A stretch of DNA of 64,000 bases from contig JAFGJS010000054.1 in assembly GCA_016928995.1 (NCBI GenBank), positions 86,536 to 150,535 on the forward strand. The letters run 5' to 3'. Of the stretch, positions 25,437 to 64,000 are shown piece by piece (the stretch's first letter is position 1; the number at the start of each line of letters is the position of its first letter). Position numbers and translations under genes: made by a program. A model generated the notes under the pieces. The model saw nothing but the letters and a program-made list of their open reading frames with translations. It searched no databases and had not been told where the DNA came from. The stretch comes from Candidatus Sumerlaeota bacterium. GTDB taxonomy: Bacteria; Sumerlaeota; Sumerlaeia; JAFGJS01.

Positions 25437-25633
25437 AAAACGGCCCTCCTCCAACCGCAAAAGGAGCGGTATTCCATTGAGAATGCGCCCGGAAGTCAAG
25501 TCCAAATTTAGCAAGTTCGCCGCGATTCGGTCAATTTTTCGTTTTTTTGGCTGAAAGATCCGCTGCGTTGTATTTTACTGATTGTAAGATCAGCAGATCT
25601 CGCGATCCATCCTTTTTTACCAGGAATCAAACG

Positions 25634-28600: not shown

Positions 28601-29113
28601 GCGCGCGGTTTCGTGTTTGAAATCACCGACGCCGATTATCTGAAGATTGAATTATTCAACGGCGACGACAGCGACCTTAATCGCACGGACGTGTTCAGCT
28701 CACAGCAGATTCCTACCGGCATCTGGACGCATGTCGCCGTGACTTATGAATATATCAGCGACGGCGCGTCAAAAGTCCGGTTGTACATCAACGGCGTGAA
28801 TGACGGCGCCAGCGACATGGCGCATGGTCCGTTGCAGCAGAATTCCAGAGCGTTTGAGGCAGGGCGCTACTATTGGTCAAACAGCTACAGCGCTTTCTGG
28901 CACGGCGAAATCGACGATGTGCGGGTGTATAACGTCGCGCTGACCGCGACCGAGATCGCCCGCATCCTCATCGGGCCGCTCGTTCGTCCGGATCTGCAGG
29001 ATCATCTGCTGGGAGTGGATACGATGACCAGCCAGCAGCAGACCGAGGCTGAAATAAACGGCGATTCGCAACTGGATATCGGCGACTTGCTGGAATGGTC
29101 GCGCTTCGATTAA
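25634..29113 (+). CDS. secreted multi-domain protein: FG-GAP/VCBS-type beta-propeller repeats + PKD/Ig-like domain + LamG/concanavalin-like lectin domain + C-terminal dockerin-like Ca-binding segment
   Basis: N-terminal signal peptide (MHPIWRCGSFIFILWALGF). More than 15 D-x-D/N-x-D-G-D repeats (DIDNDGDDDI, DLDNDGDIDL, DVNGDGKAEF, DFDNDGDTDI...). PKD-like segment TLTVQWSQVSGPGNVTF. LamG-like segment (FGNHGTVSGATWTDGYYGGALTFNGSSDYV...VRLYINGV...VRVYNVALTATEI). Tail EINGDSQLDIGDLLEW. Confidence 0.7.
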   Translation: MHPIWRCGSFIFILWALGFDAGSFRMLHAATPRLDSDVPVQETILDDDQYGHRAVAEVNGDGYNDIVGLNYGSGNGDLVWYRYPDWTRFVIAQPSLYADYQWYRSDDLAVADIDNDGDDDIAGRVGPNSDAAGPICWWENPLPSGDPSLPGWTRHDIGITDYNKDLGLADYNMDGKIDVAGRENAETHVFIQGGTPLEWTLVMQTSHYHHEGMAIGDLDNDGDIDLALNGFWFENPHPDPITNTWVFHDVDAKWYTQSGYGWQDNNSNIEVADVNGDGKAEFLISQSELPGFPLSIYSAGDPINGPWTEFQLEPVADYYQTLKAADFDNDGDTDIFSGEFPRYPDAAPWNVYIYLNEGNSGSWTRQLLTQDGVYHGSIGDVGSDGDIDLIGTRSYDTAPLFLWENLTADTSVHSLDKWTYIEVDNSRQSWGDFDTPSWVRYFGLAFGDVDGDGNKDIISGRYWYRNPGGGMTGVWTRTDLGLNCDASLFVDVDDDAFADLIASAGTTIYWLEAQDANGTLWTPTAIDTAFPGTDHVNTQGYEIVELIGGGKPELLLHADGVYMYQIPANPSSTAWTRTKIVSNSNGEAIGIGDIDGDGWTDVAVAHSPAESTTCRIKWCKHPGASGGAWAEHFIGYFDGLYPDRVEVGDLNGDGRPDIAVSEEGQVEQPIYQTAWFEAPADPTQDNWTRRTIVTQHTTNAMDAADMDNDGDLDLITGEHRGTEKVAIWASDNAGNFTEYVVPEGRESHLGARAVDLDGDGDYEIVSIAWDDYQYLHLWRNDNVGIIVPPPAENRPPSVSAGSDRLIVAPENSTTLNGSVFDDGLPATGTLTVQWSQVSGPGNVTFGSPDTPGTTAVFSISGAYVVQLSASDGALSASAHATVSFLPASANQVLHWRFDDVSGASATDSSPFGNHGTVSGATWTDGYYGGALTFNGSSDYVAISDIAINGDFPGCTAGQTGDFTLCAWIKRGSSGSRHPVVSKQGDLGSAARGFVFEITDADYLKIELFNGDDSDLNRTDVFSSQQIPTGIWTHVAVTYEYISDGASKVRLYINGVNDGASDMAHGPLQQNSRAFEAGRYYWSNSYSAFWHGEIDDVRVYNVALTATEIARILIGPLVRPDLQDHLLGVDTMTSQQQTEAEINGDSQLDIGDLLEWSRFD

Positions 29114-47900: not shown

Positions 47901-50664
47901 CGTCCGGCTGCACCGCGGCCACTTGCACGTCAACGGCCCGTGGATCTGTTTCCGAGCGAGTGATTTGCAGGCCGAGCATGATGCCGGCCGGAAAGTACAC
48001 CGCCGATGCGCGGGCCGATGCCGCGCGGCCGCCGATTTCATGCACCGCGCCGATGATTGTGATCCGCAGAGGGCTGGGGACATTGCCGCCGGGTCGCGGA
48101 GCATATTCAAACACCGTCCGGCCTTCCGCGTCCGTGATCTGCTCGCCGAGTGAAACCAGATTCGGCTTGTATCCATCGCGCAGGCCGAAGCCAAAGCCCT
48201 CCCAGCCATCCGGCTTCCAGTCCAGCGGCTCGAAGCGCACTTGCGCGCTGGCCTGCCGATCCGCCGCCGGCGCGCCGAACAAATGGCGTCCGGTCACTTC
48301 GATCTTGACCGTATCGGCCGCCCGCCAGAGCGATGAATCCGCCGAGACTTTCGCCTCCATGCGCAACGGCACGAATTCTTCCAGTTGGAAGGCATAACTG
48401 CCGATGGGTTCGTCTTCGCCTGGAACTTTCAGCTGAATGGTGTAGCGCCCCGTGGGATGGCTGCGTTGCGTGGGCGCGTCGATGGTGAACGCGCCGAATT
48501 CGTCCGGCGTCACAGTCCGCGTGAAGAGCGGCTTGCCGTCCGGCTTGAGCGTCTCCAAGAGCAGCGGGACGGCGGCCACGGCGTCTCCGTGGCGCTCGCG
48601 TACGATGCCGCAAATCCGCGCTGTTTCTCCCGGACGGTATAGGTCGCGTTCGCCGTAAAAAAACGCTTCATACTTGTCGCCCGGATACGGCGCGCCAGCG
48701 ATCTTGGCCGCGGCGTAGTCTTCCGTGCGCGATTTCAGTTCGAGAAAGGTAAAGTCGTCTTTGCGCTCGATGGCCGCTACGACCGGTTGGCCTAACGATG
48801 TGTCGAAGCCGCGCAGCAAGATCAATCCTTGACGGTCGGCTTTTCCTTCTCCCAGCAGCTGATTTTTATCCGAGTACACCCGCACGTTCGCTCCGCCCAG
48901 CGGCTCCAGCGTGTAGAGATCGTGCGCAAACAGCGCCAGTTCGTCCGCCTGCCAGTGGGCCATCGCGCCAATGCGCGTGAGCAATGCGATCTTGCGGTCC
49001 ATATCGGAGGCTTGTCCGTCTGCGTCGTGCGCGACAAGCTGCAAGGCGAACACGCCGTTTATGTCTTCTCCGAGCAATGCGGCCAGATCGAACGAGCCGT
49101 TCGTGATCGCATCGGCCGGGCCGTTCAGCTCGATTTCTTGCTCCGCGGCCTGCAGGCACCATGAACTTTCAAATTGCCAGCCGCCCTTGCCGTCATTCAC
49201 TTCTTTGACGGCCAGCGCGATGTTATTCGGAAAAACTTTGTATGCGGTCAATTTTACTTTTGCGGCGTTGCGAGCGCGGAATCGGGCCTGCATCGAGGCC
49301 TGGCGCGGAAGATAGTATTGACCCGGAGCATCGAATTCGATTTTCACGGGAACGCGCGGCGCTTGAAAGGTGTGTGTGAACGGTTGCTTCAGCGTGCTGC
49401 CGTCGCCCAGCGGCATGCCCGCTTTGAGCCGCATCGTGTACAGTTGAGATGAGCGGAATTCGCCCGACAGGCGGTATGAGCGGTCCCATTGACGTTCGAA
49501 TCGCGCGTTTTCGATTGGCGGCTCGAATTCCGCGTATTGCTCCAGCTGCTTCGGCTCGAGCGCATGCGTAGTGTTGATTTGGTAAAACAATGGATCGTCC
49601 ATGGAGCCGCCCCAGGTCTGCCAGGAGGCGTAGGTGATCTGCAATGGCGCGGCGCGGTGAAGCAATGTGACGCTGTATGGCTGCGGCAACAGGCGGTCGC
49701 CTTGCGACACCAGGTCCGCCTTTACTTCCACGCGGATCTGCGCATTGGCCGCGTCCGGCAATGCATCCAATTCCAGTTCCAGGCGCGAGCGCGCCTCATC
49801 CGTCGTCACCTGATAATTCAATGGCTGGCCGCTGGGAACGTCCGTCAATGTCACGTTCGGCTTGATCTGCGAGGGATCGACGCCGTCATTGAATTGCAGG
49901 GCGATGCGTTGCGTTTCCGCCGTGTATTCCGACCAGAGGGCGCGGACGCTTAGCGTCTGATTCTGCGGATAGACCAGTTTCTTTGTCTCACGCTGCACGC
50001 GTTCATGTTTCGCATCCCAGAGTCCATAGGCGAAGCGCAAAGTGAGCGGCGCCGCCGCATCGGCCGGCACGGCGAGCGCGATCCGGTCGGCCTCGTCCGT
50101 GGGAACTCGTTCAAACTTCACTGGCCGGCGTTCCCGGTCGGAGATGGAGAGCATTGCGGCGGCTTCATCGGCTTTCACGGCGCCGGGATAGCGCACGCGC
50201 AAGATGAGCTGTCGGGCGTCCGCTTCATGCTTCCACACGGCCATTGGCGCGAATTCGTCGTAAAAGCTGAAACTGCGCGAATCCGCGGCCAGAGCGCGTC
50301 CATCCGCACTACGCAGGCTGGCGTCCAGCGTGGCGCGCACGGTCTGGCCTTTTTGCGATTTGTTTGCGATGAACTGGATGTAGCGCGGGCCGGTGAAAAA
50401 GCGGCCCTCCATCGCCGGTTCAAAATGTATCGGGCGTTCCAGCGCCGCGCTTTCACGCGACAAATCCGCGTTAAAGAAGAATGTGATCTCGCGGTCAAAG
50501 GCCTGGCCCAACACGGGCGCCACGCCGGCGACATGCAAGGTCGGAGAACTGGGCGCGTCTCCCTGCGCTCGCGCAATGGTTCCGATCGCCAAGAGCGCCA
50601 GCAGAATCAGCCAGCATTCGCATGCGGAACGGGAACGGTTTGCAACATCAACGGCATGCTTCAT
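44947..50664 (-). CDS. bacterial alpha-2-macroglobulin family protein (thioester-containing, YfhM-like)
   Basis: ~1900 aa. Thioester motif YPYGCVEQTTSRL. Signal peptide after Met15 (GGAGGT RBS upstream). Conserved pairing with pbpC downstream. Confidence 0.9.
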   Translation of the reverse strand: MKHAVDVANRSRSACECWLILLALLAIGTIARAQGDAPSSPTLHVAGVAPVLGQAFDREITFFFNADLSRESAALERPIHFEPAMEGRFFTGPRYIQFIANKSQKGQTVRATLDASLRSADGRALAADSRSFSFYDEFAPMAVWKHEADARQLILRVRYPGAVKADEAAAMLSISDRERRPVKFERVPTDEADRIALAVPADAAAPLTLRFAYGLWDAKHERVQRETKKLVYPQNQTLSVRALWSEYTAETQRIALQFNDGVDPSQIKPNVTLTDVPSGQPLNYQVTTDEARSRLELELDALPDAANAQIRVEVKADLVSQGDRLLPQPYSVTLLHRAAPLQITYASWQTWGGSMDDPLFYQINTTHALEPKQLEQYAEFEPPIENARFERQWDRSYRLSGEFRSSQLYTMRLKAGMPLGDGSTLKQPFTHTFQAPRVPVKIEFDAPGQYYLPRQASMQARFRARNAAKVKLTAYKVFPNNIALAVKEVNDGKGGWQFESSWCLQAAEQEIELNGPADAITNGSFDLAALLGEDINGVFALQLVAHDADGQASDMDRKIALLTRIGAMAHWQADELALFAHDLYTLEPLGGANVRVYSDKNQLLGEGKADRQGLILLRGFDTSLGQPVVAAIERKDDFTFLELKSRTEDYAAAKIAGAPYPGDKYEAFFYGERDLYRPGETARICGIVRERHGDAVAAVPLLLETLKPDGKPLFTRTVTPDEFGAFTIDAPTQRSHPTGRYTIQLKVPGEDEPIGSYAFQLEEFVPLRMEAKVSADSSLWRAADTVKIEVTGRHLFGAPAADRQASAQVRFEPLDWKPDGWEGFGFGLRDGYKPNLVSLGEQITDAEGRTVFEYAPRPGGNVPSPLRITIIGAVHEIGGRAASARASAVYFPAGIMLGLQITRSETDPRAVDVQVAAVQPDGAPADLAQATLMLQRKVYGNGYFRRYYSHYGWEWETRYETAQQVDVDLKDGHGAVTLSLPSSYGDFRLNASAGDGALACERDFYSGWNYLYTYGADTKTKPNLLKVTLDRDEYEPGDVAEIQLEAPFDGHGVIVVQGERFEKMIPVDVKDNRGVARLKVEPGFFPNVWLQATVAHSTDNGAKEVMPLSSFGAADLRVNEPKRRLNVELPGAPQELRPLQAVNFQLRVTDYRGKPVHGNVTLAAVDDGIHLLSGYQNPDPYAWLRRVRKPDLNYTYYYDRVAYEFDKPQTGGDGGEELSSEKRLSENASNWIKTVALWSGELTTDNNGEAEAHFTVPEFNGRLRIVAVACSEHALGAAADSVLIRRPYMLRTSLPRFLYPGDATECRAVLFNTTTQPVTAELRWQADGRLKRDAGKSHMELPANAESSNSAQIAAGDAPGSGMMKWNVSFSGADGEELEQYNEELKLPILTPAAYQAEHHVQVLKPGESYTFKAEGYLPDDRLELELSLGSSPLLYLRRSMKYLLSYPYGCVEQTTSRLMPLYVMSGQPEALDALLDETTDIERMIQGGIDRLFSMQTATGGLGSWAGDAYPYPYGSIYALNCLTLIRGDARFDVPEANFRDLQQYVRQIALDYNGADSDDQRYTRCYAIYTLALDGDGEALRTIERFDNIDLPEAGRYLLAAALAVGTKDPARVRQYLNETPSHPYNEPYAYGALNSELRNKAVRLMALTAMQDTEAECEKLAYELADALTQDDARWNTHQRALALSAWALYYKRMHAAESGETRAMIEAPDGEHTASGTETYHGKCAGSNKQFIVRNAGKTNLILNCTTRGVPLKPNLEAISEGLTVERRLLTTDGAAADQQQLHTGRTYVMELTLKTTLPRHNIIVSELLPAGLEVENPRLEMGGGGVLGFMSELRHPSFQDLRDDRLILAYNELPQGTSRFYYTVTAMAPGEYAHPGLEAECMYDARVRARSAAGKVMIQP

Positions 50665-51004
50665 CATCGCACCTCCAAAGCCGGAAATAATATCGTTGGC
50701 GCTCATTGAGCGCGTGGTTTGCAGTTAATCAATACGTGGAGAAACGGACCGCGGCATCAGCACTGCTGCCGTTGTAAATGCAAACGGCCTATCGCCGCTG
50801 CGGCCGGTGCGGCGATTCGTCATCCTGCTGTTGAGTTGTTCAATGCTGCGCTATAGGTTCGCGCCCAGGCAACGGGCAAAGAAGCCGGTTGAAACCTGCT
50901 TGTCCATCTTGACTCAACCAGCCCATGTAAGTTTGCCGCAGATCGAAAAAATTATCAACAGTTGTTTCATTCTATCGTTGAGGGGCAAACGCTGATCACG
51001 TCCG

Positions 51005-51955
51005 TCATGTTGAGGAAGTTTTTTGGCCTGGACTCTTTTTCGCTTTCGAAGCGGCCAAAGTTTCGCCAGCCGGGGAGGCTTCTGCTTCGCCGGTCTCCTC
51101 GAGGGTCCAGCGGAAGTCGGACACCCTGCCGACAATCAGCGGATCCGGCACGTGCGCAATCTCGGGGTTCTTGTTCGTGTAATCCAGCCGATGCAGCAGA
51201 TGCAGCATGCAATTGATCCGGGCGCGCTTTTTGTCGTTCGACTTAATCACGGTCCACGGCGCCTTGGCGGTGTCCGTGCGGGCGAACATGGCGTTTTTCG
51301 CCTCGGTGAATTCTTCCCATAACTCCTGCGCCTTCTTATCCACCGGACTCAGCTTCCATTGCTTCAGCGGATCGTGCTGGCGCGATTCGAACCGGCGCCG
51401 TTGCTCGGCTTGCGTGACGGAAAACCAGTATTTAAACAGGATGATCCCGCTATTCACCAGCATCGTTTCAAACTGCGGCACGGCGCGCATGAATTCCCGA
51501 TATTCCTGATTCGTGCAAAACCCCATCACGCGCTCCACGCCCGCCCGGTTGTACCATGAGCGGTCGAAGAAGACGATTTCGCCGTGCGTCGGCAGCTGCG
51601 CGACATAGCGCTGAAAATACCACTGGCCCTGCTCGTTCTCCGTGGGCTTTTCCAGAGCCACCACGCGCGCGCTACGCGGATTGAGATGCTCCATGAAGCG
51701 TTTGATCGTCCCGCCTTTGCCTGCGGCATCGCGGCCCTCGCAAACCACGACGATTTTCTGGCCCGTCTCGCGCACCCAGGATTGCATTTTGAGCAGCTCG
51801 ATCTGCAGCTCGGCTTTGAGTTGCTCGTACTCCTTCCGCCGCATCTTTTGAATGCCCGGATACGTCGAGTCGATGAAGTGTTTTTGCGTCAGCGGCAAGG
51901 ACTCCGCGTGCACGACGATCGAAGGCTCATGTTGTCCTTTTTTGCGGTCCATCAT
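51005..51955 (-). CDS. polyphosphate kinase 2 (PPK2)
   Basis: 316 aa. Walker A-like GRDAAGKGG and the PPK2 fold region (...FDRSWYNRAGVERVMGF...). Confidence 0.85.
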   Translation of the reverse strand: MMDRKKGQHEPSIVVHAESLPLTQKHFIDSTYPGIQKMRRKEYEQLKAELQIELLKMQSWVRETGQKIVVVCEGRDAAGKGGTIKRFMEHLNPRSARVVALEKPTENEQGQWYFQRYVAQLPTHGEIVFFDRSWYNRAGVERVMGFCTNQEYREFMRAVPQFETMLVNSGIILFKYWFSVTQAEQRRRFESRQHDPLKQWKLSPVDKKAQELWEEFTEAKNAMFARTDTAKAPWTVIKSNDKKRARINCMLHLLHRLDYTNKNPEIAHVPDPLIVGRVSDFRWTLEETGEAEASPAGETLAASKAKKSPGQKTSST

Positions 51956-52460: not shown

Positions 52461-53930
52461 TTAAGCCCATAAGAGATTCTTCAGGCGTTTGATGCCGGCC
52501 TGGAGATAATTGCTTAGCGTGCCTTCGCGTCGTGCGCGGTTCAGCGTGCGGAAAATATAGCCGGGATTGAGGCTCATTTTCAGCAGCGCGCGCTTGCGCC
52601 AGCGGCTGAGCTCGTCCGCGCTCAATGTAAACGTGCGCACAGCGGCCTTATGATATCCTACATCGGTGTTTAACTCCGATGCCATAAGCCCTTCGCGCTG
52701 CACGATGTCGTAGAGTTCCGTCCCTGGCAGCGGCGTGGCGATGTTGAAATCGAAGAAGTCCAGCTGGAGCGACCGGGCGAAGCGGTACGTCTGCTCAATG
52801 GTTTCGCGCGTGTCCCACGGCATCCCGACCACGAAAAAGCCATGCACGCACAGTCCGGCTTCCTTGCAGATGCGCACGGCCTGCGGGGCGCGATCCACCT
52901 TGGCCTGCTTCTTCATCTTATCCATGATTTCCTGGCTGCCGGTCTCTAGTCCGAAGGCGACAACCCAACAACCGGCCTGCCTCATTCTTTGCGCCCGCTC
53001 CGCGCAGATCGTGTCCACCCGGCTGTTGCAGCCCCAGCGAACCGGCAGCTGCGCCTCGATGAGGCGGTCGCAGAGCTCCAGCGTCCATTTTTTGTTGATT
53101 GTAAATGTGTCGCCGTGAAACAGGAATTCCCGCACGCCGTGCCGCTCCACGCACTCGCGGATTTCCTCGACCACCTTCGCCGGATCGCGAAAACGGACGC
53201 GGTAATTGCTGATCGTTCCGGCGGGGCAAAAGATGCATTTCGACGGACAGCCGCGATTGGCGTAGACCACCGTGATCGGCTGATGCGTGTCCGGGCTGCG
53301 ATAGCGTTCGTTCGCCAGCAGATCGCGCGCGGGAAAGGGCAGGCTGTCCAGCGATTCGAGCAGTTCGCGCTCCGGCGTGCGCCGCACCTCGCCCGCTTCG
53401 GCGCCGCACCAGGCCAAGCCTTTCACTTCCGTCACGGGCTGGCCCTTCGTCAACGCGAATAGCGTCATTTCCGGTTCGCCCAGCAAGACCAGGTCGAGCT
53501 CCGGATGGTGCGGCAAGATCCGTTCGCAATTCACCGTGAGGTATTCTCCGCGCCCCACGTTGACGATATCCGGGCAGAGCTCGCGCGCCAGACGCATCGC
53601 CTGCAGATCGCCCTCGATCGTGCCGGTGGTCGCGCTGACCAGCAGCAGGTCCGGCTTGAATTCGCGCAGTTCGCGCTCGAACTCCGGCCACGACTGGCCC
53701 AGCGCGGGGTAGTCGCCGATGCGGCATTCCACGCCGTTCTGCCGCAGCACCGCCGCGTCGTACGCCAATTCAATCGGAGGAAAATTCACGGCGACCGTTT
53801 GCTCTTCCACCTTGACCTGGCAGCGGTCGTCGCGCCGGTAATTGCCTGAGGGTGGATTCACGAGCAATGCGCGGCGGATGTTCAGGCTCTCATGCCTCAT
53901 GGAATGATGTTCAATGCAGGCGCTCAGCAT
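52461..53930 (-). CDS. B12-binding domain radical SAM enzyme (class B)
   Basis: 489 aa. N-terminal cobalamin-binding-like domain followed by the radical SAM CxxxCxxC motif (CPSKCIFC). Confidence 0.8.
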   Translation of the reverse strand: MLSACIEHHSMRHESLNIRRALLVNPPSGNYRRDDRCQVKVEEQTVAVNFPPIELAYDAAVLRQNGVECRIGDYPALGQSWPEFERELREFKPDLLLVSATTGTIEGDLQAMRLARELCPDIVNVGRGEYLTVNCERILPHHPELDLVLLGEPEMTLFALTKGQPVTEVKGLAWCGAEAGEVRRTPERELLESLDSLPFPARDLLANERYRSPDTHQPITVVYANRGCPSKCIFCPAGTISNYRVRFRDPAKVVEEIRECVERHGVREFLFHGDTFTINKKWTLELCDRLIEAQLPVRWGCNSRVDTICAERAQRMRQAGCWVVAFGLETGSQEIMDKMKKQAKVDRAPQAVRICKEAGLCVHGFFVVGMPWDTRETIEQTYRFARSLQLDFFDFNIATPLPGTELYDIVQREGLMASELNTDVGYHKAAVRTFTLSADELSRWRKRALLKMSLNPGYIFRTLNRARREGTLSNYLQAGIKRLKNLLWA

Positions 53931-54002: not shown

Positions 54003-55301
54003 ATGACGTCAATAAGAACCCGTATCAAAAGCATGCAAGCATGGCGTTGGCGCGTTGTGTTGTTGATGACTGCGCTGGCGGCGCCGGTGTTGCTTTATTC
54101 CGCAATGGCGCAAGTGGATGAGCCGGCCTCGGTCGAACTGCGCGTGAACTTGCCCGGCGGCGAGTATTTTCCGCTTCCCGTGCGCGTGTTGAACCTGAAA
54201 TCCGGCGAGCAGACCGCGCAACTGGAGTGCATCGCGGCGGATGAGCTGGAGACGGCGTTGCGGGAAATCGATCCGGATAGCTCCGTGACGTGGTACGAGC
54301 GCGACGCCGTGCTGCGCATCGAGCTGCGCGGGAAACGGCTCTCGCTGTATAAGCGTAAAATCATCGCCGGCGGCGAGCTCGATGAGCTGACGCATCCCCT
54401 GCAGAGCGCCGACGGCAACGTCTATCTTCCGCTGAAGTCGGTCGAAGCGCTGTTCGGCCATCTGCCGGACGTGACCGCGCAACGCGTCGAGCAAAAGCCT
54501 CTGCCGGAGGAGCCGCCGGCGCAGAATCAAACCGAGGAACAGCCGCCCGTGGGCATCGCGTCACTGGAGTCTGAGGAAATAACGCCAACGCCTTCGACAG
54601 AACCGTTGCAGGCCATGGAGACGGACAAGCTTCCGCTGCTGCCGCCCGTCGCCGCGCTGTTGCCGCTGGCGCGTCCGAATCGCGCAAAGCCCCTCATCGC
54701 GCTGGATGTCAGCGGTTTACGGCTGGCTGTCGAGCCGGAATACGCGCATGGCCTTCGCAACGCCCTTGCGGCCTTATCACGGAGGCTGGAGCAATCCATC
54801 GAGTCGGATTTGGGCGCCGATTGCGAGCTTGTCGGGCTCGACGCGGCGATGACGCCCGAGCAGCGCCTGGCGCGCCTGGCGGAAATGCGGCCGGATGCGC
54901 TGCTGATCCTTCGCGTTGGACAAGGCGGCGCCGAGGAATCGGGCGGCGTATTGATTTGCTATCCGACGAACCTGCTCGACGCCTCCAGCGCGCTGCCGCC
55001 CGGAGGGAAATCCTCGCGCAAACTATACTTCCGCCCTTACGCGGAACGATCCCGGCGGCTTGCCGAGGCTCTGCAGAGCCGTTTTGCCGCCGCTGGAGAG
55101 CGTCCGGTGAGCGCAGTGCAGGCCGCTCCCCTGTACATCCCCCGCCGGATGGATTGCCCTTCCGTGCTCATCGAAATCGGCCGCATAGCCAACGCCGCCG
55201 ACCGCGACTGGTTCAATCAACGTCCGGATTATTACGCCGATGCAATCGTTCAGGCGCTGAAAAAAAACGTCTATTCTTCAACCGGCGACGCCGTCCGCTG
55301 A
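54003..55301 (+). CDS. AMIN-domain + Amidase_3-like cell-wall protein with apparently degenerate zinc site
   Basis: 432 aa with a signal peptide and an AMIN-like N-terminal beta domain. A Pro/Glu-rich linker precedes a C-terminal Amidase_3-like domain ending PSVLIEIGRIANAADRDWF. The expected His ligands (GHGG / SIHAD) are replaced by VSG / RVG. Confidence 0.6.
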   Translation: MTSIRTRIKSMQAWRWRVVLLMTALAAPVLLYSAMAQVDEPASVELRVNLPGGEYFPLPVRVLNLKSGEQTAQLECIAADELETALREIDPDSSVTWYERDAVLRIELRGKRLSLYKRKIIAGGELDELTHPLQSADGNVYLPLKSVEALFGHLPDVTAQRVEQKPLPEEPPAQNQTEEQPPVGIASLESEEITPTPSTEPLQAMETDKLPLLPPVAALLPLARPNRAKPLIALDVSGLRLAVEPEYAHGLRNALAALSRRLEQSIESDLGADCELVGLDAAMTPEQRLARLAEMRPDALLILRVGQGGAEESGGVLICYPTNLLDASSALPPGGKSSRKLYFRPYAERSRRLAEALQSRFAAAGERPVSAVQAAPLYIPRRMDCPSVLIEIGRIANAADRDWFNQRPDYYADAIVQALKKNVYSSTGDAVR

Positions 55302-55557: not shown

Positions 55558-56124
55558 GTGACGAACGATAGCGAATATTGGCGCAAATACGAAGAAGCCA
55601 AGGTGACGCATTCCGCGGCGCACTACCTGATGGCGATCATCAACCTGCGCAAACAGCAGGGCTACGCCCGGATCACCGACGTCGCGGATTACCTGCGCGT
55701 TTCGCGCGGCGCCGCTAGCAAAGCAATCGCCCTGCTGCGCGAAAGGGAATACATCTGCGAAGATCCGAATCGCATGCTTGAACTGACGCGCAAGGGTTTC
55801 AACGTCACCCATGCCGTGGAGCGCAACTTCGCTGTCGTGGAATGCTTCTTCAAGGACATCCTTAAGATCGAAGAAACCATCGCGCGCGAAAACGCCTGCA
55901 AACTTGAGCATCTCCTCAGCCCTTCGGTCACTGAGTCTCTCTTCCGCTTTGTGCGCGCGCTGGAGGAAAATCCGGCCTTGATGGATCAGATCCGGCGTAA
56001 AATCGACACGGATGACAATCCATGCGTGGATAAAACCGGATGCATGGTCTGCAACGAATATGACGGTTGTCTTGACGCCGATCTGCAAGACATGAGCAGA
56101 ACGGATACCGGCAGCGCGGAATAA
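55558..56124 (+). CDS. DtxR/MntR family metal-dependent transcriptional regulator with C-terminal Cys cluster
   Basis: 188 aa with an N-terminal HTH (ITDVADYLRVSRGAASKAIALLREREYI). C-terminal CVDKTGCMVCNEYDGC. Confidence 0.8.
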   Translation: MTNDSEYWRKYEEAKVTHSAAHYLMAIINLRKQQGYARITDVADYLRVSRGAASKAIALLREREYICEDPNRMLELTRKGFNVTHAVERNFAVVECFFKDILKIEETIARENACKLEHLLSPSVTESLFRFVRALEENPALMDQIRRKIDTDDNPCVDKTGCMVCNEYDGCLDADLQDMSRTDTGSAE

Positions 56125-56358: not shown

Positions 56359-57573
56359 CTAAAACTGGTGGGCCGTGCTGATACTCTTTGGCCACAGATA
56401 CATGCCGAAGGTATCGCCGGAAAATGTTGATGTTCCCATATACTCCATGTTCAGACTGGCGGCTGTCCGATGGACCTGCATCGAAGTAAATCCCCCGAGA
56501 TTCTTGATGCTGAATGTTTGCCATACATAATTGTCGGTTGTGTTGACTGCGACAATCACCACCCCGTAATTGCGATATGCAGTGACATAAACTCCGGAAG
56601 TGGGTTGATAGGTGCATGAAATGCGCTGTTTGCCTGGAACCACCCACTTGGCAAACTGGCCGATTGTATAGGCGTTCTTGTTAATGGTTCCGCCATTGGT
56701 GACGAGATTGACATCGCTATCATCATCATTAGCCCACCACCAGAAATACGCGCTCATGCTGGCGTTCATGCAATCGCTGATTTCTTTAGCGATAGCCACG
56801 CAGTTGTTGATATCATTGGCGCCGTCTCTGAAATGCTCGGTCATCCAGACTTTTTTTCCGTAGTTGAGCGCGTTTGTATGGGTGTAAAGGCCGCTGCCAT
56901 AAATGTGACCGCCGATGATGTCGATGTTATTACGGGCCGCGGCATTGTTCAAAGTGGGATCCGAATACGAGTCGTTGAATTGATAGGATTCGGGCATCAG
57001 CACGGGTATGTTGATGGAGCCTGCGTTATTCTGGCAGAAGCTGAGCAATTGCGTTGGCGTCCAGTCGCAGGACTCGTAGGTGACGTCGATATCCGGTTCA
57101 TTTTGGATGGAAACGTAATCCAAGTCGATGTAACTCGCTGCGCCATTCAACCAGTTGGCGTAGTTGCTATAATATGAGCTCAGCAGCGATCCGCCGATAT
57201 AATCATTGTTGTCCTTATACCACGGGGGGGGCGTCCAGGGCGTGCCCAGCACCTCGGCGCCGTAGGAATGCGCCGCAGAGGCGTTGTTCTTTTCTGCGTC
57301 CCATCGGCCATTCGAGGAACTGCCCCATGGATCGATGCGGACGCGCAACAGCGAAAATCCGAGTGTGTTGTACAGCGCGTAGTTTTTGGCGGAGCTGAAC
57401 TGTCCGCACCAGGCGCTGGAGCATCCGAATCCATCAATTGATTGATACCTGATGTCGCCGTCGATAATGCAACTGCCCGCATTGGCGTTGATAGAGAGCG
57501 CAGTCATCGCCAGAATGACAAGAAAACTGACGATATTACACGTAGATCTTTTCCAGTCCGTTGCTAATTGCAT
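56359..57573 (-). CDS. glycoside hydrolase family 30 (glucuronoxylanase XynC-like, GH30_8), secreted
   Basis: Signal peptide. DGFGCSSAW, the acid/base motif SIQNEP and the nucleophile region VWMTEH. The gene is AT-rich. The ATG at ~57573 is preferred over the ORF-track start at 57660. Confidence 0.8.
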   Translation of the reverse strand: MQLATDWKRSTCNIVSFLVILAMTALSINANAGSCIIDGDIRYQSIDGFGCSSAWCGQFSSAKNYALYNTLGFSLLRVRIDPWGSSSNGRWDAEKNNASAAHSYGAEVLGTPWTPPPWYKDNNDYIGGSLLSSYYSNYANWLNGAASYIDLDYVSIQNEPDIDVTYESCDWTPTQLLSFCQNNAGSINIPVLMPESYQFNDSYSDPTLNNAAARNNIDIIGGHIYGSGLYTHTNALNYGKKVWMTEHFRDGANDINNCVAIAKEISDCMNASMSAYFWWWANDDDSDVNLVTNGGTINKNAYTIGQFAKWVVPGKQRISCTYQPTSGVYVTAYRNYGVVIVAVNTTDNYVWQTFSIKNLGGFTSMQVHRTAASLNMEYMGTSTFSGDTFGMYLWPKSISTAHQF

Positions 57574-58309
57574 TTTGTTTCTCCTTGGTATGATTTGTTC
57601 AAGCAAACAACATGTTGGCGTACTGCGAAATGACATAACCGCAGTAATGTGCCGATTCATTGCCGTGCTTACCAGAAACCATATTTACTGATTCAATGGC
57701 GCCTCAATGACAGGATCGACAATCTGCTCCATAAACATTGGCGGCTGTTGAATGCCTCCTTTCTTCTTGCCATCGAGTTGGATTGGTATCGGAGTGTGAT
57801 CAATGCAATCCATTGCATAACATGTCACGATGCTGGACTGAATGTATGTCGCGCCGGGGGTTGGCGTTCATCTGGTAGAATCTCATCCCTTTTCCACGGG
57901 CACACACTTTTTGAGCAAAGCGTCAAAAATAATGCAATTGTCTGGTTTGTTTATTTATTTGTATTTTCTGATGAGCACGAGAGGGTTGCACGATATCGAG
58001 GTTTGCCCGCATTCCTGCTTGTATTGGGTATTTTCCGTGTTCATTGGGGAGAAGAAACCTGCATTGCAGTGGATCATAATACGAGCAGTTTGGCTTATCG
58101 TTGCGCATATGGCGACGGCTAATGGCTGATCTGCGGCGCGATAATCACTTGCCTCACTGGCGTTGCATGGCGTAATCTGAGGGCAGCCTGGATTTCTTTC
58201 GTCTAACTTCTAATTGTGTTCATCGTTATTGTAGTAAGAACTTTTTTTCGCATACGTTGTCAGTGGTATAATATTGGCGCTGCATCCCAATCTATGGAGG
58301 ACTCGCACC

Positions 58310-61300
58310 GTGTCGCTCAGAGCATCTATTCTCGCATTGATCGCATTGCTGGCGGCAATGCCGCGATCGCCGTTGGCTCAGGCGGCTGATCGCACGCCAT
58401 CGGCGGACGCCGAACGGGTCGTGTTTGTGCCTTATGAGAAGGCGTCCGGTCCGGAATGGGGCCTGGATCAGTCGGTATTGATCCCTTATGCGGAGTTTTT
58501 GAAGTTGAAGAACGCGGGCGCGGATCCGGCGGCCGCCGCGGATTTTCATCCTGCCGCCGCCATTGCCCAGGCGACGCTGAAGGGGCGAGTGGAAGGGGAT
58601 GTCGCGGTTTTTGACGCGGAGTATGTGATCGAGGTGATGGCGCGCCAGGATGATTTGCTGAAGCTGCGCTTGCCGTTCGAAAATGTTTCGGTGGAGAGCG
58701 TCCAGGTCGAGGGACCGCAGGCGCTGCTGTCGCCTTTCACGAAGACATCGGGCTTTCAGCTGGAGCTGTTGGGGCCGGAGCGGCGGACGTTGCGGATACG
58801 GATGGCGGCGGCGATCCATCAGCAGGGCGCGGCGCAGATCCTGGATTTTCAATTGCCGCGAGCGGCCGCGGCTTCGATGGAGCTCATCGTGGATGAGGAT
58901 GTGGCGCTGGAGAAGATTCCGGACGGCCTGGCCACGGCGATGATAGCGCCGGCGGAAGAGGGGAAGTTTAAAATCACCGCGTCGCTGGGCTCGCAAGGGC
59001 ATGTGCGGCTGGGATACCGTCCGCGTGTGTTGAAAACCGGCGCGGCGGCGCAGAAGAGGATGGCGGTGGATCAGCAGTATCAGCTGTCCGTTTCGCGGCA
59101 GGGCGCGAGGGCCGGCGTGAAGCTGCATGTCGAGCTGCTTTCCGGCGAGATCGATTCGTTTCAGCTCACGCTGCCGGAAGGCGCGCGGTTGCTGAGCGTT
59201 GCCGGGGATTATGTCAAGGACTGGAAGGCGTTGTCCGAGCCGGGAGCGGTTGAGGTGGCTTTGATCGAAAGCATGTCCGAGCCGTTTGAGGTCGCATTGG
59301 ATGTTCAGTATGTGGGCGCGGCGGACGACGGCCGGCTGAATGTGCTTGAGCTGCGTTTGCCCGAGGCGCTGAGAGAGTCGGGGACTATCATCGTGACTCC
59401 GGATCCTGAGGTTTCGGTTTGGCCGGAGCAATCGGCGGGGCTGGATGAGGTTGCGCCGCCGGCTTCGTCCGGGGCGATGGCTCGCGCGTATCAGTTTTCG
59501 CAGCCGGGCTGGACGCTGGAGCTGACGCGCCGCCCGAAGGATGCGCGCGTGCAGTCTTCTTCGATCGTGTTATATGAAGCGACGGAGGATTGGATTCGTT
59601 TAAAGTCGCAGCACCGGCTGGCGATTTTTTCGCGCAGTATTTTCGGTGTGAGTTTTGAAGTTCCGGAGGGCTTTCAATTGCGCGAGGCGGGGCCGCCGGA
59701 GCTGGTGGCCGGTTTCCGGCAGGAGGGCCGCTTGATCGAGCTGACCTTTAACCGGGAACAGAGCGATGCCTGCGAAGTGCGCTTGAGCTTGCAGCGTCCG
59801 CGCGAGGCCGGCGAGGCGGCGTTGCAGTTGCAGCCGATTCGCGTGCAGGGAGCGGAGGAGGACACCGGCGGACTGGCCTTGGCCGCGCCGTTGGCGCTGC
59901 GCGTGGCTGAAGTGGAATCGAGCGGGCTGCATGGGGCGGATGTGCGCACGTTGCAGTCGCGCATCGCGCCGTTGCTTTCGCCGGATTTGACGCCGGCGCT
60001 GGGGTATCAGTTTTTTCAACCGGAATTCGAGGCGACGATATCCATCGAGCGTCAGCGCACGCGGATCAGCTGCGAGACTTCGATTTTGACCTCGATCATG
60101 CCGAATCTGCTGAAGGTGCACGCGACGCTGAATTACAACATCGAGTTTTCGGCGACGGATGAATTGCATCTTCGTGTTCCGGCGAGCATCGGCGAGGACG
60201 TAGTGATCTCCGGCGCGGACATCAAGGAGCGCACGCCAATGAAGGCGCCGGATGATCGCGCTGTTCCGGGCGTGTTGACGATGTGGACGGTGAAGTTGCA
60301 GCGCCGCGTGATCGGCCCGTACCGTTTGCATGTGACTTTTGACGTTCCGCTGAAGGAGGCGGAGCAAGGCAAGCCGATGATTGTCGTGGCGCCAGTGGTC
60401 AGCGCGGCGGACGTGGTTCGCGAGACGGGCTATGCCGGCGTTTCGCGCGGCGAGAATCTGGAGGTGCGCATCGCGAAAAAAGCGGATGCGCTGGAGCTGC
60501 GGGACGTGAAGGAACTGCCGGGCGATTTGGCGAGCGCTTCGCTGGGCTTTCGATATTTTGATCCGAAGGATTTTCAGCTGGAGTTGGAATTGATCCGGCA
60601 TGAGCTGGAGAGCGTGCTGGGGGCGCTGGTGCGCAGGATGCATATCGACACAGTGTTGACGAATCAGCGCGAGGCCGTGCATGAGGCGGTCTTTGAGGTG
60701 CAGAATAACAGCAAACAATACCTGGAGCTGGATCTGCCCGTTGGAATGAAGATCTGGTCGGCGTTCGTGCGGGGCGCGCCGGTGCGGGCCACCAAGCGTC
60801 AGGAGGACGGGGCGTATTTAATCGCGCTGCCCAAATCGCCTTCGATGGACGAGGCTTTTCGCGTGCGGCTGATCCTGCGCGAGACGCTGCCGGGCGGCGC
60901 CATGGGCATATTCGGCAAACTGAAGTTTGATCCGCCGCAGCTAATACAAGGGACGATCCCTGTCTTGCGAGTGACGTGGAAGCTGTATCTTCCGCCGGAT
61001 TATCATTATGTGAAGTTTCGCGGCGGAATGCGGCATGAGACGGGCGGGAGTTCGCCGTGGATCGAGCCGGCGATGGAGAAGCTGCTGAATGATCTTCCGG
61101 CCGGCCTGGCCGGGGGCATCGCGCAACCGGCGCTGAGGCCGAATCAGGCGCGAGTGGGAGTGGCGTATAATTTGCAGGAGACGAACGCGGAGCGGGAGGC
61201 GCGGGTGCAGGGAACCGCGCTGGAAATTCCGATCGTGCGCGAGGGGCTGCAATTTCAATTCAGCAAGCTGAGCGGAACCGGCGACATCCAGGTTGCGTTC

Positions 61301-61687
61301 TGGAAGCGCAAGCCGCTGTTGCTGTTGCAGGGGGCGGTGGGTCTGGCGTTGCTGGTTGGATTGCTCTGGTGGATGCTGCGGGGCGGCGGAAGATTGCGGG
61401 ATTGCTTGCTCGCCGCCGTGGTCTTGTTTATCGCCGCCAGTCTGATGGATGGATTGCTGGGGCGTTTGTTCGCCACAGCGTTCGGCGGTTCCGCCGTAGC
61501 GGTGATCGCTGGCGCGTTCATCGAAGTCCAGCGCCGCGCGAAAATGGCGAAGAAGGATGATGGTTTGCCGCCTTCATCTTCGCCACCGCCTCCGCCAAGC
61601 TCGAGTCAAGCGGATCTGGCTGACGGACCGGATGGAGCGGAGAGCATTGAAGGAGCGGATGATCCCATAACTTCAAACGACGACTGA
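58310..61687 (+). CDS. giant secreted/membrane-anchored protein of unknown function (paralog A)
   Basis: ~1125 aa. GTG start with a GGAGGA RBS (the ORF-track TTG start is at 58274). Signal peptide. Two C-terminal TM helices followed by a Pro/Ser-rich acidic tail. N-terminal module homologous to the next gene. Confidence 0.6.
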   Translation: MSLRASILALIALLAAMPRSPLAQAADRTPSADAERVVFVPYEKASGPEWGLDQSVLIPYAEFLKLKNAGADPAAAADFHPAAAIAQATLKGRVEGDVAVFDAEYVIEVMARQDDLLKLRLPFENVSVESVQVEGPQALLSPFTKTSGFQLELLGPERRTLRIRMAAAIHQQGAAQILDFQLPRAAAASMELIVDEDVALEKIPDGLATAMIAPAEEGKFKITASLGSQGHVRLGYRPRVLKTGAAAQKRMAVDQQYQLSVSRQGARAGVKLHVELLSGEIDSFQLTLPEGARLLSVAGDYVKDWKALSEPGAVEVALIESMSEPFEVALDVQYVGAADDGRLNVLELRLPEALRESGTIIVTPDPEVSVWPEQSAGLDEVAPPASSGAMARAYQFSQPGWTLELTRRPKDARVQSSSIVLYEATEDWIRLKSQHRLAIFSRSIFGVSFEVPEGFQLREAGPPELVAGFRQEGRLIELTFNREQSDACEVRLSLQRPREAGEAALQLQPIRVQGAEEDTGGLALAAPLALRVAEVESSGLHGADVRTLQSRIAPLLSPDLTPALGYQFFQPEFEATISIERQRTRISCETSILTSIMPNLLKVHATLNYNIEFSATDELHLRVPASIGEDVVISGADIKERTPMKAPDDRAVPGVLTMWTVKLQRRVIGPYRLHVTFDVPLKEAEQGKPMIVVAPVVSAADVVRETGYAGVSRGENLEVRIAKKADALELRDVKELPGDLASASLGFRYFDPKDFQLELELIRHELESVLGALVRRMHIDTVLTNQREAVHEAVFEVQNNSKQYLELDLPVGMKIWSAFVRGAPVRATKRQEDGAYLIALPKSPSMDEAFRVRLILRETLPGGAMGIFGKLKFDPPQLIQGTIPVLRVTWKLYLPPDYHYVKFRGGMRHETGGSSPWIEPAMEKLLNDLPAGLAGGIAQPALRPNQARVGVAYNLQETNAEREARVQGTALEIPIVREGLQFQFSKLSGTGDIQVAFWKRKPLLLLQGAVGLALLVGLLWWMLRGGGRLRDCLLAAVVLFIAASLMDGLLGRLFATAFGGSAVAVIAGAFIEVQRRAKMAKKDDGLPPSSSPPPPPSSSQADLADGPDGAESIEGADDPITSNDD

Positions 61688-61697
61688 GGATTGCGCC

Positions 61698-64000
61698 ATG
61701 AAGCTTCGAATACAGAGCATGTTCGTTTTTTTCATCGCTGGCGCAATCGGGTCGGCGGCGCCGGCGTTGGCGGCCGCCTCAACGGATGTTGCGCCGGTTG
61801 AGGTTTTCTATATTCCGCAGGAGGATCTGGCGCGCGGACCGGGGTATGCGAGCGAGGGTTTGTATCTGCCGTTGTCCGAGCTGCTGGAGCTGGCGGCGCA
61901 CGCTCAGGGCGCTTCGGAGAAGCGCGAGACCCTGAGCGGCGTCTGCTGCCGGTCGCTGAATTTGTCCGGAACGTTGAAGGAGGGGCTGGCCCTGGAGGGC
62001 GAGCTGTCGTTCGTGGCGGCGGGCGATGGCTGGTCGGCGGTTTTGGTCGATGACGGGGGGATTCCCTGGCTTTCGCAGGCATCGCCGGAGACGGCGCCGG
62101 CGTTTTTGTCTCGCGTACGCGGAAAGACTTTTCTTTTTGCGCGCGGACCGTCCGAGGGTGTGGTTCGGCTGAAGGCGTTTGTTCCGGCGCGGGGCGATGG
62201 CGTTGTTCTCCAGGCGTCGCTGGGGCGGATTTTTGCTCCGTGCCGCGTGACGCTGGATCACGACGAGAGCATCGCGTTTGATACAGCGTCGGCGCCAGCT
62301 GATGCGTCGCCGGCGCAGCTGCGTCTTTGGCCTGCGCAGGGGGCGCCTGTCGAGCTGCGATACCGCATGAAGGCCGGATTTCAGGCGCCGGCCGCTTTGC
62401 GCGTCGAGCATGCGCGCGAGATCAAGGCTGCCGGCGGGGGATTGCAGCTCGAGGATGAGCTGACTCTGGCAGGAAGGTTTTCGCCCGGAGAGCCGATTCA
62501 ATTTGCGCTGCCGGAACAGATGCGGCTGTTGCGCGCGACGACCTCGGATGCGGCGGAGGTTCGTATCGATGACGCCGCGTTGACGGTCGTTCCACTGCAA
62601 CATTGTGAAACGTTGAAGATTTGGGCGTCGTTGGCCGTTGATGCGGTTGAGGGACGGGCGGTGTTGAAGCCGTGGAAGTTCGATGCGCAGGCGGTTTATT
62701 CTAGCGTGCGGCTGATCGCTTCGCCGCAGTATGCGCCTGTGCCGGTGGATTGGCCGGAGGAGCTGTTTCCCGCGGCTGGCGGCGCCGCGGACCGTCATTA
62801 CGAGTGCTGGGGGGCGTTGCCTGAATTGAGCGTCGCGCTGGCGGACGCCTCGCCGCCGCAGCCTTTGCGTGTTTCGGCGCTGCTGACGCTGGCGGAGAAT
62901 GCGGCGACGGTTGAGTATTATGTGGAGCTCACGGATCCCCATCAGCGCGAGATTCGATTTCAACTGCCGGTGGATTGGGTTTTGACGGAGCTGACGGCGA
63001 CGCGCGGCAAACAAATCGCGCCCGTGGCCGTTCAGCAGGAAGACGACCGCTGGTGGCGAGTGACCGGCGCTCCGTCGCAGAATCCGGGAGCGGTTCGTTT
63101 TTCTTTGCGGCGGATGGAGCAATGGGGCCGGGCGGATGAGGCGACGACGCTGGAACTGCCGCTGGCGCGGTTCGTTGGATTGCGTCCGTCGCTTTATGAG
63201 CTGCGGATCGCCTGGCCGGAAGGCCTGGAAGCGCGCGTGGCGCAGTTGTCGTCGATGGTTGTGACGCCGGTGGGCGGAAGTTTTGTCTTGCCGTCGCCGG
63301 GCGACCGTGAGGCTCAGCTGGCATTGCAGGCGGAGGGGGATGCGCCGTCCGGCTCGCTGGCCGTGCGGATGCGTGAGGCGGAGCAACGGGTGACGGTGGT
63401 GACGGTTCTTTCCGTGCAGGAGGATCGGGCCAACATCCGGGCCTTGCTGTCTTATGAGACGCGGTTTGCGCCCAGCCGCGCGTTCCGTTTTAGCTTGCCT
63501 GCGGGCACGGGCTCGAACGTGCGCATTGAGGGCGAGGGAATCCGCGAGACATCGCTGCAGGAGACAGCGGAAGGCGACGTCTGGACCGTGATTGCGCAGC
63601 GCGATGTGCTGGGCGAGTTTCAATTGACGTTGGAGTGGAGTCTGGACGCCAAGCCAGGCGCGAAGGCGATTCAGGCGCCGGAGATCCGGCTGCCGGACAT
63701 TGCGATGCAACAGGGTTTCATTGTGCTGGAAGGCTCCCAGACCTTGCTGCTGAATACGGAAAGCAAGAATCTGGCTGAGACGGAGCTGTCCGAGCTGCCG
63801 CCGTTGCCCTGGCCCCGAGAGAACCGGCTGCTGGCGGTGTATCGCTATATTGAACCGCCGTTTTTGTTGAGCGTGCAGGCGGAGAAACTGGAGCCGGAGC
63901 CGGCGCTGGAAGGCTTGGCGGATAAGGCGGAACTGGTGACGACGGTGGCCGCGAACGGTGAGCGTTTAACGCGGGCGCGGTACGATGTGAAGCCGACGAA
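61698..64000 (+). CDS. giant secreted protein of unknown function (paralog B), 3'-truncated by window edge
   Basis: ATG at 61698, signal peptide MKLRIQSMFVFFIAGAIGSAAPALAAAS. Open to the end of the window (>760 aa). N-terminal VEVFYIPQEDLARGPGYASEGLYLPLSELLEL aligns with VVFVPYEKASGPEWGLDQSVLIPYAEFLKL of paralog A. Confidence 0.55.
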   Translation, partial: MKLRIQSMFVFFIAGAIGSAAPALAAASTDVAPVEVFYIPQEDLARGPGYASEGLYLPLSELLELAAHAQGASEKRETLSGVCCRSLNLSGTLKEGLALEGELSFVAAGDGWSAVLVDDGGIPWLSQASPETAPAFLSRVRGKTFLFARGPSEGVVRLKAFVPARGDGVVLQASLGRIFAPCRVTLDHDESIAFDTASAPADASPAQLRLWPAQGAPVELRYRMKAGFQAPAALRVEHAREIKAAGGGLQLEDELTLAGRFSPGEPIQFALPEQMRLLRATTSDAAEVRIDDAALTVVPLQHCETLKIWASLAVDAVEGRAVLKPWKFDAQAVYSSVRLIASPQYAPVPVDWPEELFPAAGGAADRHYECWGALPELSVALADASPPQPLRVSALLTLAENAATVEYYVELTDPHQREIRFQLPVDWVLTELTATRGKQIAPVAVQQEDDRWWRVTGAPSQNPGAVRFSLRRMEQWGRADEATTLELPLARFVGLRPSLYELRIAWPEGLEARVAQLSSMVVTPVGGSFVLPSPGDREAQLALQAEGDAPSGSLAVRMREAEQRVTVVTVLSVQEDRANIRALLSYETRFAPSRAFRFSLPAGTGSNVRIEGEGIRETSLQETAEGDVWTVIAQRDVLGEFQLTLEWSLDAKPGAKAIQAPEIRLPDIAMQQGFIVLEGSQTLLLNTESKNLAETELSELPPLPWPRENRLLAVYRYIEPPFLLSVQAEKLEPEPALEGLADKAELVTTVAANGERLTRARYDVKPT

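Follow-up and report, generated by a model that had tools for sequence, protein, structure and literature searches.

The 3′ end of a 64,000-nucleotide stretch from a Candidatus Sumerlaeota bacterium (GCA_016928995.1, contig JAFGJS010000054.1, positions 86,536 to 150,535 of the forward strand; hereinafter the window) carries a tandem pair of genes, A (58310-61687, + strand) and B (from 61698, + strand, open at 64000), that belong to an undescribed family of very large, predicted envelope proteins. As judged from profile comparisons, the two genes jointly encode three paralogous modules, namely A itself, the N-terminal half of B and the C-terminal half of B. Each module is organized as a signal or signal-like sequence, an 'hhVPY...hhPY.EF..L' motif, an all-beta ectodomain of ~830 amino acids (aa), a flexible linker, a beta-hairpin, and two to four inner-membrane helices. 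We propose, with a probability of about one half, that these modules come together in the periplasm as a single complex anchored in the inner membrane, which would provide the envelope with a structural or docking scaffold.

A BLASTP comparison of A with B aligns 610 residues co-linearly at 24% identity (E = 3e-11), and an hhalign comparison of the N-termini of A orthologues with those of B orthologues gives a probability of 91% (E = 9e-7; A 34-241 versus B 33-227), pairing the N-terminal motif of A with VEVFYIPQED...LYLPLSELLEL in B. At the level of sequence, these values place the paralogy of A and B beyond chance, with the two genes being distantly related. An earlier interpretation of the window made from its letters alone (the sequence-only reading) had claimed tandem same-strand paralogues with a 10-bp gap and a shared N-terminal module, and both claims hold, down to the pairing of the motifs. 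Its view of B as a paralogue of ~1000 aa has to be abandoned, with complete B orthologues measuring 2477-2988 aa and comprising two A-like modules. Gene A aligns co-linearly with each half of a complete B orthologue. A profile made only from A orthologues matches module 1 of each Sumerlaeota B protein at E = 1e-21 to 1e-35; in module 2 it finds the first half (E down to 6.5e-15) and the last domain (E = 1e-9 to 1e-11), and it also matches both regions containing the hairpin and transmembrane (TM) helices. The occurrence of matches to one and the same profile in module 1, module 2, and both hairpin/TM regions argues for three paralogous modules housed in two genes.

Gene A codes for a single-module member of 1125 aa (NCBI JXA32_05855, annotated as a 'hypothetical protein' of Candidatus Sumerlaeota bacterium), whose orthologues in the Sumerlaeota relatives found are 41-54% identical over the best matching segment. 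Its predicted signal peptide (58310-58384, + strand, aa 1-25), ending in ...LIALLAAMPRSPLAQA (...PLAQA) immediately before AD, precedes the conserved N-terminal motif common to all three modules (58409-58519, + strand, aa 34-70, VVFVPYEK...SVLIPYAEFLKLK), wherein V38, F39, V40, P41, Y42, and, further on, P59, Y60, A61, F63, and L64 are invariant among the A orthologues. The all-beta ectodomain (58547-61039, + strand, aa ~80-910) is made up of roughly five beta-sandwich domains, and conservation across the family is highest in the last of these (aa ~772-905, ...QYLELDLP...RVTWKLYLPPDY). On the 3′ side of a disordered linker lies a conserved beta-hairpin (61235-61306, + strand, aa ~976-999, ALEIPIVREGLQFQFSKLSGTGDIQVAFW), and the same motif recurs before the TM helices that follow either module of B, as well as in other members. 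Three C-terminal TM helices follow (61307-61549, + strand, aa ~1000-1080), which are supported by both hydrophobicity (segments 1003-1021, 1029-1047, and 1053-1071) and the structural model (helices 1000-1024, 1029-1045, and 1049-1080). The protein ends in a disordered, Pro/Ser-rich acidic tail (61550-61684, + strand, aa 1081-1125), which we predict to be cytoplasmic because of the three TM helices and the basic residues after the first and third of them. Thus, of the earlier description of this C-terminus, the cytoplasmic tail stands as a prediction, and the two TM helices become three. The composition noted earlier was likewise recovered for A and B (Ala 12%, Leu 12-13%, Cys 0.3-0.5%), and the envelope location that had been claimed for both is predicted here from their signal peptides and C-terminal TM helices.

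The ATG of B (61698) lies 10 bp past the TGA of A (61685-61687) on the same strand, and the window holds the first 767 codons of the gene (61698-64000, + strand), which cover the signal peptide, the N-terminal motif, and most of module 1 and remain open to the window end, as the sequence-only reading had noted. The predicted signal peptide (61698-61772, + strand, aa 1-25; hydrophobic segment 8-26) ends in ...FFIAGAIGSAAPALA (...AAPALA) before AAS; in both A and B these signal-peptide-like N-termini, already claimed earlier, were recognized by inspection of the sequence rather than by a dedicated predictor. The N-terminal motif of B (61794-61895, + strand, aa 33-66, PVEVFYIPQEDLARGPGYASEGLYLPLSELLELA) contains the positions invariant in B orthologues, viz., P40, D43, G54, P58, L59, E61, L63, and L65. 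A Logan contig (L001) that is identical to the window over 15,691 bases with 0 mismatches carries B on to aa 980, past the close of module 1 and a TM helix at 908-926 and into ...SRLVELLVVLLIIAILAAIAVPNFL, the hallmark helix of type IV pilins. From its orthologues, the complete B of this genome is expected to have ~2500 codons, ~1700 of them past the window. The order of elements in a full-length orthologue (L005) is signal peptide, module 1, TM helix, basic linker, and a pilin-like helix with its globular domain; then a low-complexity linker, the hairpin 'GLLSLSVEIPEGGIRRTFERLGGDAGMEIRF', and three to four TM helices; and finally module 2 with a coiled-coil or TPR-like stretch, a second hairpin, and two TM helices. 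Another sequence considered as a B orthologue (P0007) was rejected, and alignments of B with the sequences available for modelling showed 12-22% identity.

An AlphaFold2 model of A, built on an alignment of 35 sequences where A is matched chiefly with module 1 of two-module proteins, has a mean predicted local distance difference test score (pLDDT) of 82 and a predicted template-modelling score (pTM) of 0.47. Residues 80-910 form an all-beta region, mostly with pLDDT >90, and are followed by a disordered linker, a hairpin at 980-999 (strands 980-987 and 993-999, pLDDT ~89), three long helices, and the disordered tail (pLDDT <50); the signal peptide region appears as a low-confidence N-terminal helix, and the N-terminal motif reaches a pLDDT of only ~50-60 in this monomer. 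We estimate that the modelled all-beta region comprises about five domains, and fold comparisons suggest that these sandwiches are of the type seen in the N-terminal domain of M1 aminopeptidases and in Ost1. The fold matches also include TAF2, with alpha-2-macroglobulin (A2M) at only 7.1. As modelled, the fold of A points to a non-enzymatic domain of the protein-scaffold type rather than to a particular function. No HExxH motif is present in A, B, or a complete B orthologue, and no peptidase family of Pfam matches A or B.

Starting from a single sequence only eight relatives were recovered, whereas a profile search gave 85, mostly of 2200-2500 aa with two modules. An exhaustive hidden Markov model (HMM) search of representatives clustered at 50% identity found 10,086 members at E<=1e-3, 7,535 at E<=1e-10, and 4,061 at E<=1e-30. 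All named hits are 'hypothetical proteins', save for a spurious JGI label, 'YjbI with pentapeptide repeats', on one of them (P0025), and the organisms named, all from Sumerlaeota, Verrucomicrobia, or Planctomycetes, are Sumerlaeota/BRC1, Opitutaceae, Verrucomicrobiales, Luteolibacter, Pirellula, Thermoguttaceae, Planctomycetaceae, and Symmachiella. A scan of genome contigs with the A orthologues gave matches in Sumerlaeota only, and the cluster members added one further named organism, again from Sumerlaeota. The signature of the family, i.e., a signal sequence, the VPY/EF..L motif, an all-beta array ending in ..L.LP...W.L.LP..Y, a linker, the hairpin, and TM helices, occurs in three modules per cassette.

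None of the curated resources accounts for this family. Pfam has no match for A and only a sub-threshold, chance-level one for B, and no Pfam family recurs among 21 diverse members; NCBIfam has no family for A or for the window part of B; and the PDB has no sequence relative of the family profile. The EccD component of type VII secretion (TIGR03920) reaches 16.3 bits against a cut-off of 94.95 in a match confined to the TM helices of A, and Ribophorin_I (PF04597) has no Pfam match in A, B, or the 21 members. The claim of an unrecognised family is thus upheld. We also found no counterpart of this architecture in the open-access literature, and the main text of an essential-gene paper on Planctopirus limnophila has no link to the A/B family. 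Given that every test for membership in a known family failed and that no described counterpart was found, we regard the A/B family as undescribed and outside the known kinds.

The pairing of the two genes is conserved in Sumerlaeota and Planctomycetes. B directly follows A in every Sumerlaeota locus with room for both, and the pair is also found in L019 (1197 and 2483 aa), in the planctomycete-type L020 (1152 and 2329 aa), and in the Symmachiella-like L007 (1128 and 2240 aa). The spacing between the two ranges across loci from gaps of 8-10 bp to overlaps of 4 to ~14 nt, and A and B are probably translationally coupled. One locus (L021:3205-12442) has instead three single-module genes of 1024, 986, and 1069 aa with 4-nt overlaps, which amounts to an unfused version of the same three-module set. 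As the three modules are kept either as three genes or as one gene and a fused pair, we argue, in the manner of a Rosetta-stone relationship, that they act together. The open reading frames (ORFs) past B in the orthologous loci are unconserved and mostly on the opposite strand (six of eight loci), with the other two showing only short same-strand ORFs or a gap, and the genes upstream of A also differ between loci. Since the flanking genes are not conserved, A and B constitute a self-contained two-gene cassette. The earlier suggestion that further components of the system might lie beyond 64000 is accordingly not borne out; what lies there, as judged from the orthologues, is the remaining two-thirds of B. 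No other family member or pilin-like ORF is present in the window.

Under the scaffold proposal, the three modules would assemble into an inner-membrane-anchored, periplasm-facing structure that would serve as a structural or protein-docking platform, rather than as an enzyme, an adhesin, or a piece of a bigger secretion system. In the Sumerlaeota version, the pilin-like domain tethered in B might allow machinery of the type II secretion or type IV pilus kind to dock. The physical three-module complex, its periplasmic scaffold role, and any link to pseudopili are inferences, and we further speculate that contacts between modules might be made by the poorly modelled VPY motif at the N-terminus and by the fold-back hairpin. 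Several observations weigh against this proposal. The low pTM means that the domain arrangement in A is not fixed by the model, and the domains matched in the fold comparisons have themselves no single defined function. The B of this genome is read only to aa 980, i.e., 213 codons beyond the window (L001). Further, one locus (L018) has B alone with no detectable A-like partner, and in another (L006) the family gene again has no detectable A-like partner, with the neighboring 810-aa protein not being detectably related. Finally, the pilin-like insert is restricted to certain lineages and is therefore accessory rather than central to the function of the family.

A more far-reaching version of the scaffold proposal, which we hold only tentatively and consider unlikely as a whole, is that of a tripartite envelope machine with a near-universal housekeeping role in Planctomycetes, Verrucomicrobia, and Sumerlaeota. 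Here, three paralogous Ost1-like arms would be joined via N-terminal VPY strands and C-terminal hairpins into a platform spanning the periplasm, with some lineages adding a tethered pseudopilin; the latter would then represent a pilin fold newly used as a fixed membrane base and not as a filament subunit.

The insert itself, which resembles pilins and GspG, lies between the B modules in 10 of 10 Sumerlaeota B proteins (insert HMM, E = 1e-52 to 1e-88), where it occupies the linker of the first module together with an extra TM helix; the same HMM matches the B of the present genome, where the available sequence cuts the insert short. Among 235 other family proteins, 12 have a pilin-type helix in the corresponding place between the modules. 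In phmmer searches of the PDB, the L005 insert recovers geopilin (E = 1.3e-11), PilA (E = 2e-10), and GspG (5wda, E = 4e-7 over residues 5-133), whereas the curated models stay below their cut-offs, with NCBIfam GspG (TIGR01710) at E = 2e-10 and 41 bits against 88.85, Pfam T2SSG at E = 0.01-0.03 below its gathering threshold, and TIGR02532 likewise below its cut-off. The N-terminal hydrophobic helix, beginning ~950 residues into B, retains Glu5 in this genome (...SRLVELLVVLLIIAILAAIAVPNFL) as in the orthologues. At position -1 relative to it, the six sequences inspected have V, L, C, T, L, and L instead of Gly. Processing by prepilin peptidase needs this glycine, and in its absence such processing is not expected and the insert would stay tethered; going by its residues, the B insert should be an unprocessable, permanently tethered pseudopilin domain. 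As the insert adds two membrane passes, namely the TM helix and the pilin helix, the topology of the parts flanking it is preserved. The models of the Verru_Chthon cassette (TIGR02596 and relatives) do not match A or the window part of B, and the B pilin helix has a weak match to Verru_Chthon protein D (E = 0.004; 17 bits, where the cut-off is 70). One of the 12 other proteins with a pilin-type helix, P0019 (L018:8001-15467), has a DUF1559-type pilin-like insert at residues ~1078-1200 (...LLPALSKAKAKS...NNLKQIG...) in the same inter-module position; set beside the GspG-like insert of Sumerlaeota, it suggests independent or exchanged insertions of pilin domains.

The presence of this domain in B of all Sumerlaeota orthologues and of 12 other members raises an alternative close to the secretion-associated system of the sequence-only reading, in which A and B would serve a type II secretion- or type IV pilus-like apparatus as its platform or alignment subunits in the inner membrane, with the other genes encoded elsewhere, as would be in keeping with the type IV pilus genes reported in all Sumerlaeota metagenome-assembled genomes (PMC8092238). 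We regard this as improbable: no gene for an ATPase, a secretin, a platform protein, or a prepilin peptidase adjoins any locus examined, most family members do not have the insert, and, with Gly(-1) missing, processing of the pilin type is not expected.

Of comparably low probability is a role as an envelope-signal receptor, in which the ectodomains would sense a periplasmic or envelope cue and relay it via the TM helices to the cytoplasmic tails, in an integrin-like or anti-sigma-coupled fashion. In three loci outside Sumerlaeota (L004:2949-6598, L006:4166-9611, L021:213-3208), genes for an extracytoplasmic function (ECF) sigma factor and a membrane protein with VWA and YfbK_C domains precede the family genes on the same strand, and in L021 the VWA/YfbK_C protein has a faint match to zf-HC2, a domain of the anti-sigma type, and the genes overlap by 4 nt; no zf-HC2 is listed in L004 or L006. 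Integrin alpha 'legs' are among the best Foldseek hits of A (E = 7e-10), and cytoplasmic tails, albeit disordered, are present. Against this, no sigma/anti-sigma pair or signaling domain stands beside the cassette in the Sumerlaeota or planctomycete loci examined, in part of which the upstream ORFs were scanned with Pfam; the tails are unconserved and have no recognizable domain; and the template-modelling scores (TM-scores) of the integrin matches are <=0.16. In L006, the 810-aa protein with no detectable relationship stands between the ECF/VWA genes and the family gene. A paper on VWA 'force transducers' concerns a different kind of VWA protein.

The remaining explanations fare worse. The sequence-only reading had considered a surface system. 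We regard a cell-surface adhesin or S-layer-like coat protein as very improbable: surface exposure is not indicated, with the proteins ending in two to four TM helices typical of inner-membrane anchoring and having no outer-membrane or sorting signal. No adhesin or surface profile (Big, cadherin, FG-GAP, autotransporter, T9SS/PEP-CTERM sorting) matches A or B, and no adhesin repeat, autotransporter, or sorting-tail family recurs among the 21 members, with Por_Secre_tail occurring in just one of them, below cut-off. Still less probable is a divergent Bat (aerotolerance)-type, VWA-associated membrane complex with BatD-like modules: for it speak the layout of the proteins, which recalls that of BatD, and the VWA proteins adjacent in three loci, but BatD (PF13584) has no match at E<=1 in A, B, or the 21 diverse members, the latter also showing no other Bat family of Pfam at that level, and no MoxR, DUF58, BatA, BatB, or BatC gene is found near A/B or the Sumerlaeota and planctomycete orthologues. 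Placement in a known family, such as a Bat/aerotolerance or adhesin one, with its usual gene neighborhood was the outcome that the sequence-only reading had named as fatal to its case, and neither of these two was found. A periplasmic protease trap related to A2M is effectively refuted, as A and B have none of the defining features, i.e., neither the thioester motif C[GLSA]EQ nor the MG/A2M domains of Pfam.

Regarding the 5′ end of the cassette, the ORF enclosing gene A spans 58274-61687 (+ strand), and both the NCBI and the Logan gene calls, which match the sequence exactly, start A at GTG 58310 to yield the 1125-aa product. A Shine-Dalgarno-like GGAGG (58296-58300, + strand) was read in the sequence 9 nt 5′ of this GTG, and a candidate extended -10 element, TGgTATAAT (58264-58272, + strand), for which the evidence is weak, lies 37 nt upstream of the start codon; a consensus scan found no full -35/-10 promoter. 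The alternative start TTG 58274 was rejected, and the location of TGgTATAAT directly upstream of it argues for GTG 58310. Three antisense ORFs (58292-59431, 59600-60718, and 61779-63710) were dismissed as genes in view of the protein conservation across phyla in the + strand frames.

The GC content is 0.44-0.52 at 57500-58499 versus 0.60-0.66 in A and B; the AT-rich islet noted earlier is thus real, though modest, and it is not conserved beside the orthologues. Within it, 57661-58309 (GC 0.44-0.52) contains only unconserved small ORFs, and the GH59-like gene before it (56359-57660, - strand) has a GC of 0.48-0.55, below its surroundings. Neither this gene nor the upstream 95/157-aa ORF was retained as a partner of the cassette, both having no homologue in any related locus. 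The GC skew is strongly positive throughout A and B (+0.15 to +0.26; 58500-64000) and within about +/-0.1 in the 10 kb upstream, which could reflect amino-acid composition or purine loading.

Elsewhere in the window, the gene for a penicillin-binding protein of the PBP1c type, with Transgly, Transpeptidase, and BiPBP_C domains (42626-44950), shares 4 nt with that for a 1919-aa bacterial A2M of the YfhM type (44947-50706), the two (42626-50706, - strand) forming a classic A2M-PbpC pair that is unrelated to A/B. Two further large proteins fall outside the family, namely a 1188-aa FG-GAP/PKD/LamG protein (25547-29113, + strand) and a 1245-aa GT2 glycosyltransferase fused to DUF5060 (13160-16897, - strand). 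The nearer genes provide a housekeeping context: PPK2 (51005-51955, - strand), a B12-binding radical SAM enzyme (52461-53930, - strand), an Amidase_3 protein (54003-55301, + strand), and a DtxR-type metal repressor (55558-56124, + strand).

Planctomycetes, Verrucomicrobia, and their relatives have unusual envelopes, and much of their gene content, essential genes included, is without known function (PMC10632474). With ~10,000 representatives at 50% identity and a three-module arrangement found across at least three phyla, and with no curated model, the A/B family is one of the larger blanks in bacterial envelope biology. The module boundaries, the topology, and the pattern of fusion and fission make its function a testable question in the cultivable Symmachiella and Luteolibacter, where members are found, and possibly in Planctopirus, and the internal, apparently unprocessable pilin domain is a curiosity for the field of pili and secretion. 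Were the modules to be mere structural spacers, the gain would be a new family of the Pfam type, with which giant proteins now listed in their thousands as 'hypothetical' could be annotated.

Comparison with known systems delimits what is shared. With the N-terminal beta-domain of the M1 peptidases (LTA4H, tricorn factor F3, ERAP1, APN) and of M61, only the non-catalytic fold matches, at just 8-15% identity, and no sequence model connects them to A/B; unlike these enzymes, A and B have no catalytic domain or HExxH, and the domain is arrayed, exported, and membrane-anchored. Ost1 (ribophorin I) is a eukaryotic, luminal oligosaccharyltransferase subunit of ~430-600 aa, with which the TM-scores are 0.2-0.33, such that the folds of the domains match but their arrangement does not. 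BatD, of the Bacteroides aerotolerance operon, has a beta-rich ectodomain between its signal peptide and a C-terminal TM helix; A and B resemble it in this general layout and have VWA neighbors in some loci, but show neither an HMM match nor the Bat operon neighborhood. Bacterial A2M is periplasmic and anchored to the inner membrane, and A and B resemble it as very large multi-beta-sandwich proteins with a predicted envelope location; the true A2M in the window, however, displays seven Pfam domains above their cut-offs and a sub-threshold Big_5, unlike A and B.

The B insert comes closest to the type IV pilins and GspG of type II secretion, sharing the hydrophobic N-terminal helix, Glu at +5, the ...IAILAAIAVPNF... 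core, and a putative GspG-like globular part. It differs from them in its score below the NCBIfam cut-offs and in its setting in the middle of a protein of 2500 aa, where a TM helix and then a basic cytoplasmic linker precede it and no Gly is present at -1. Modular pilins carry a processed pilin module at the N-terminus, whereas in B the module is internal and predicted to be tethered on both sides. Streptococcus sanguinis PilB is described as a pilin and minor pilus subunit with an added module (PMC8179133), and B shares with such proteins the joining of a pilin module to a large non-pilin module.

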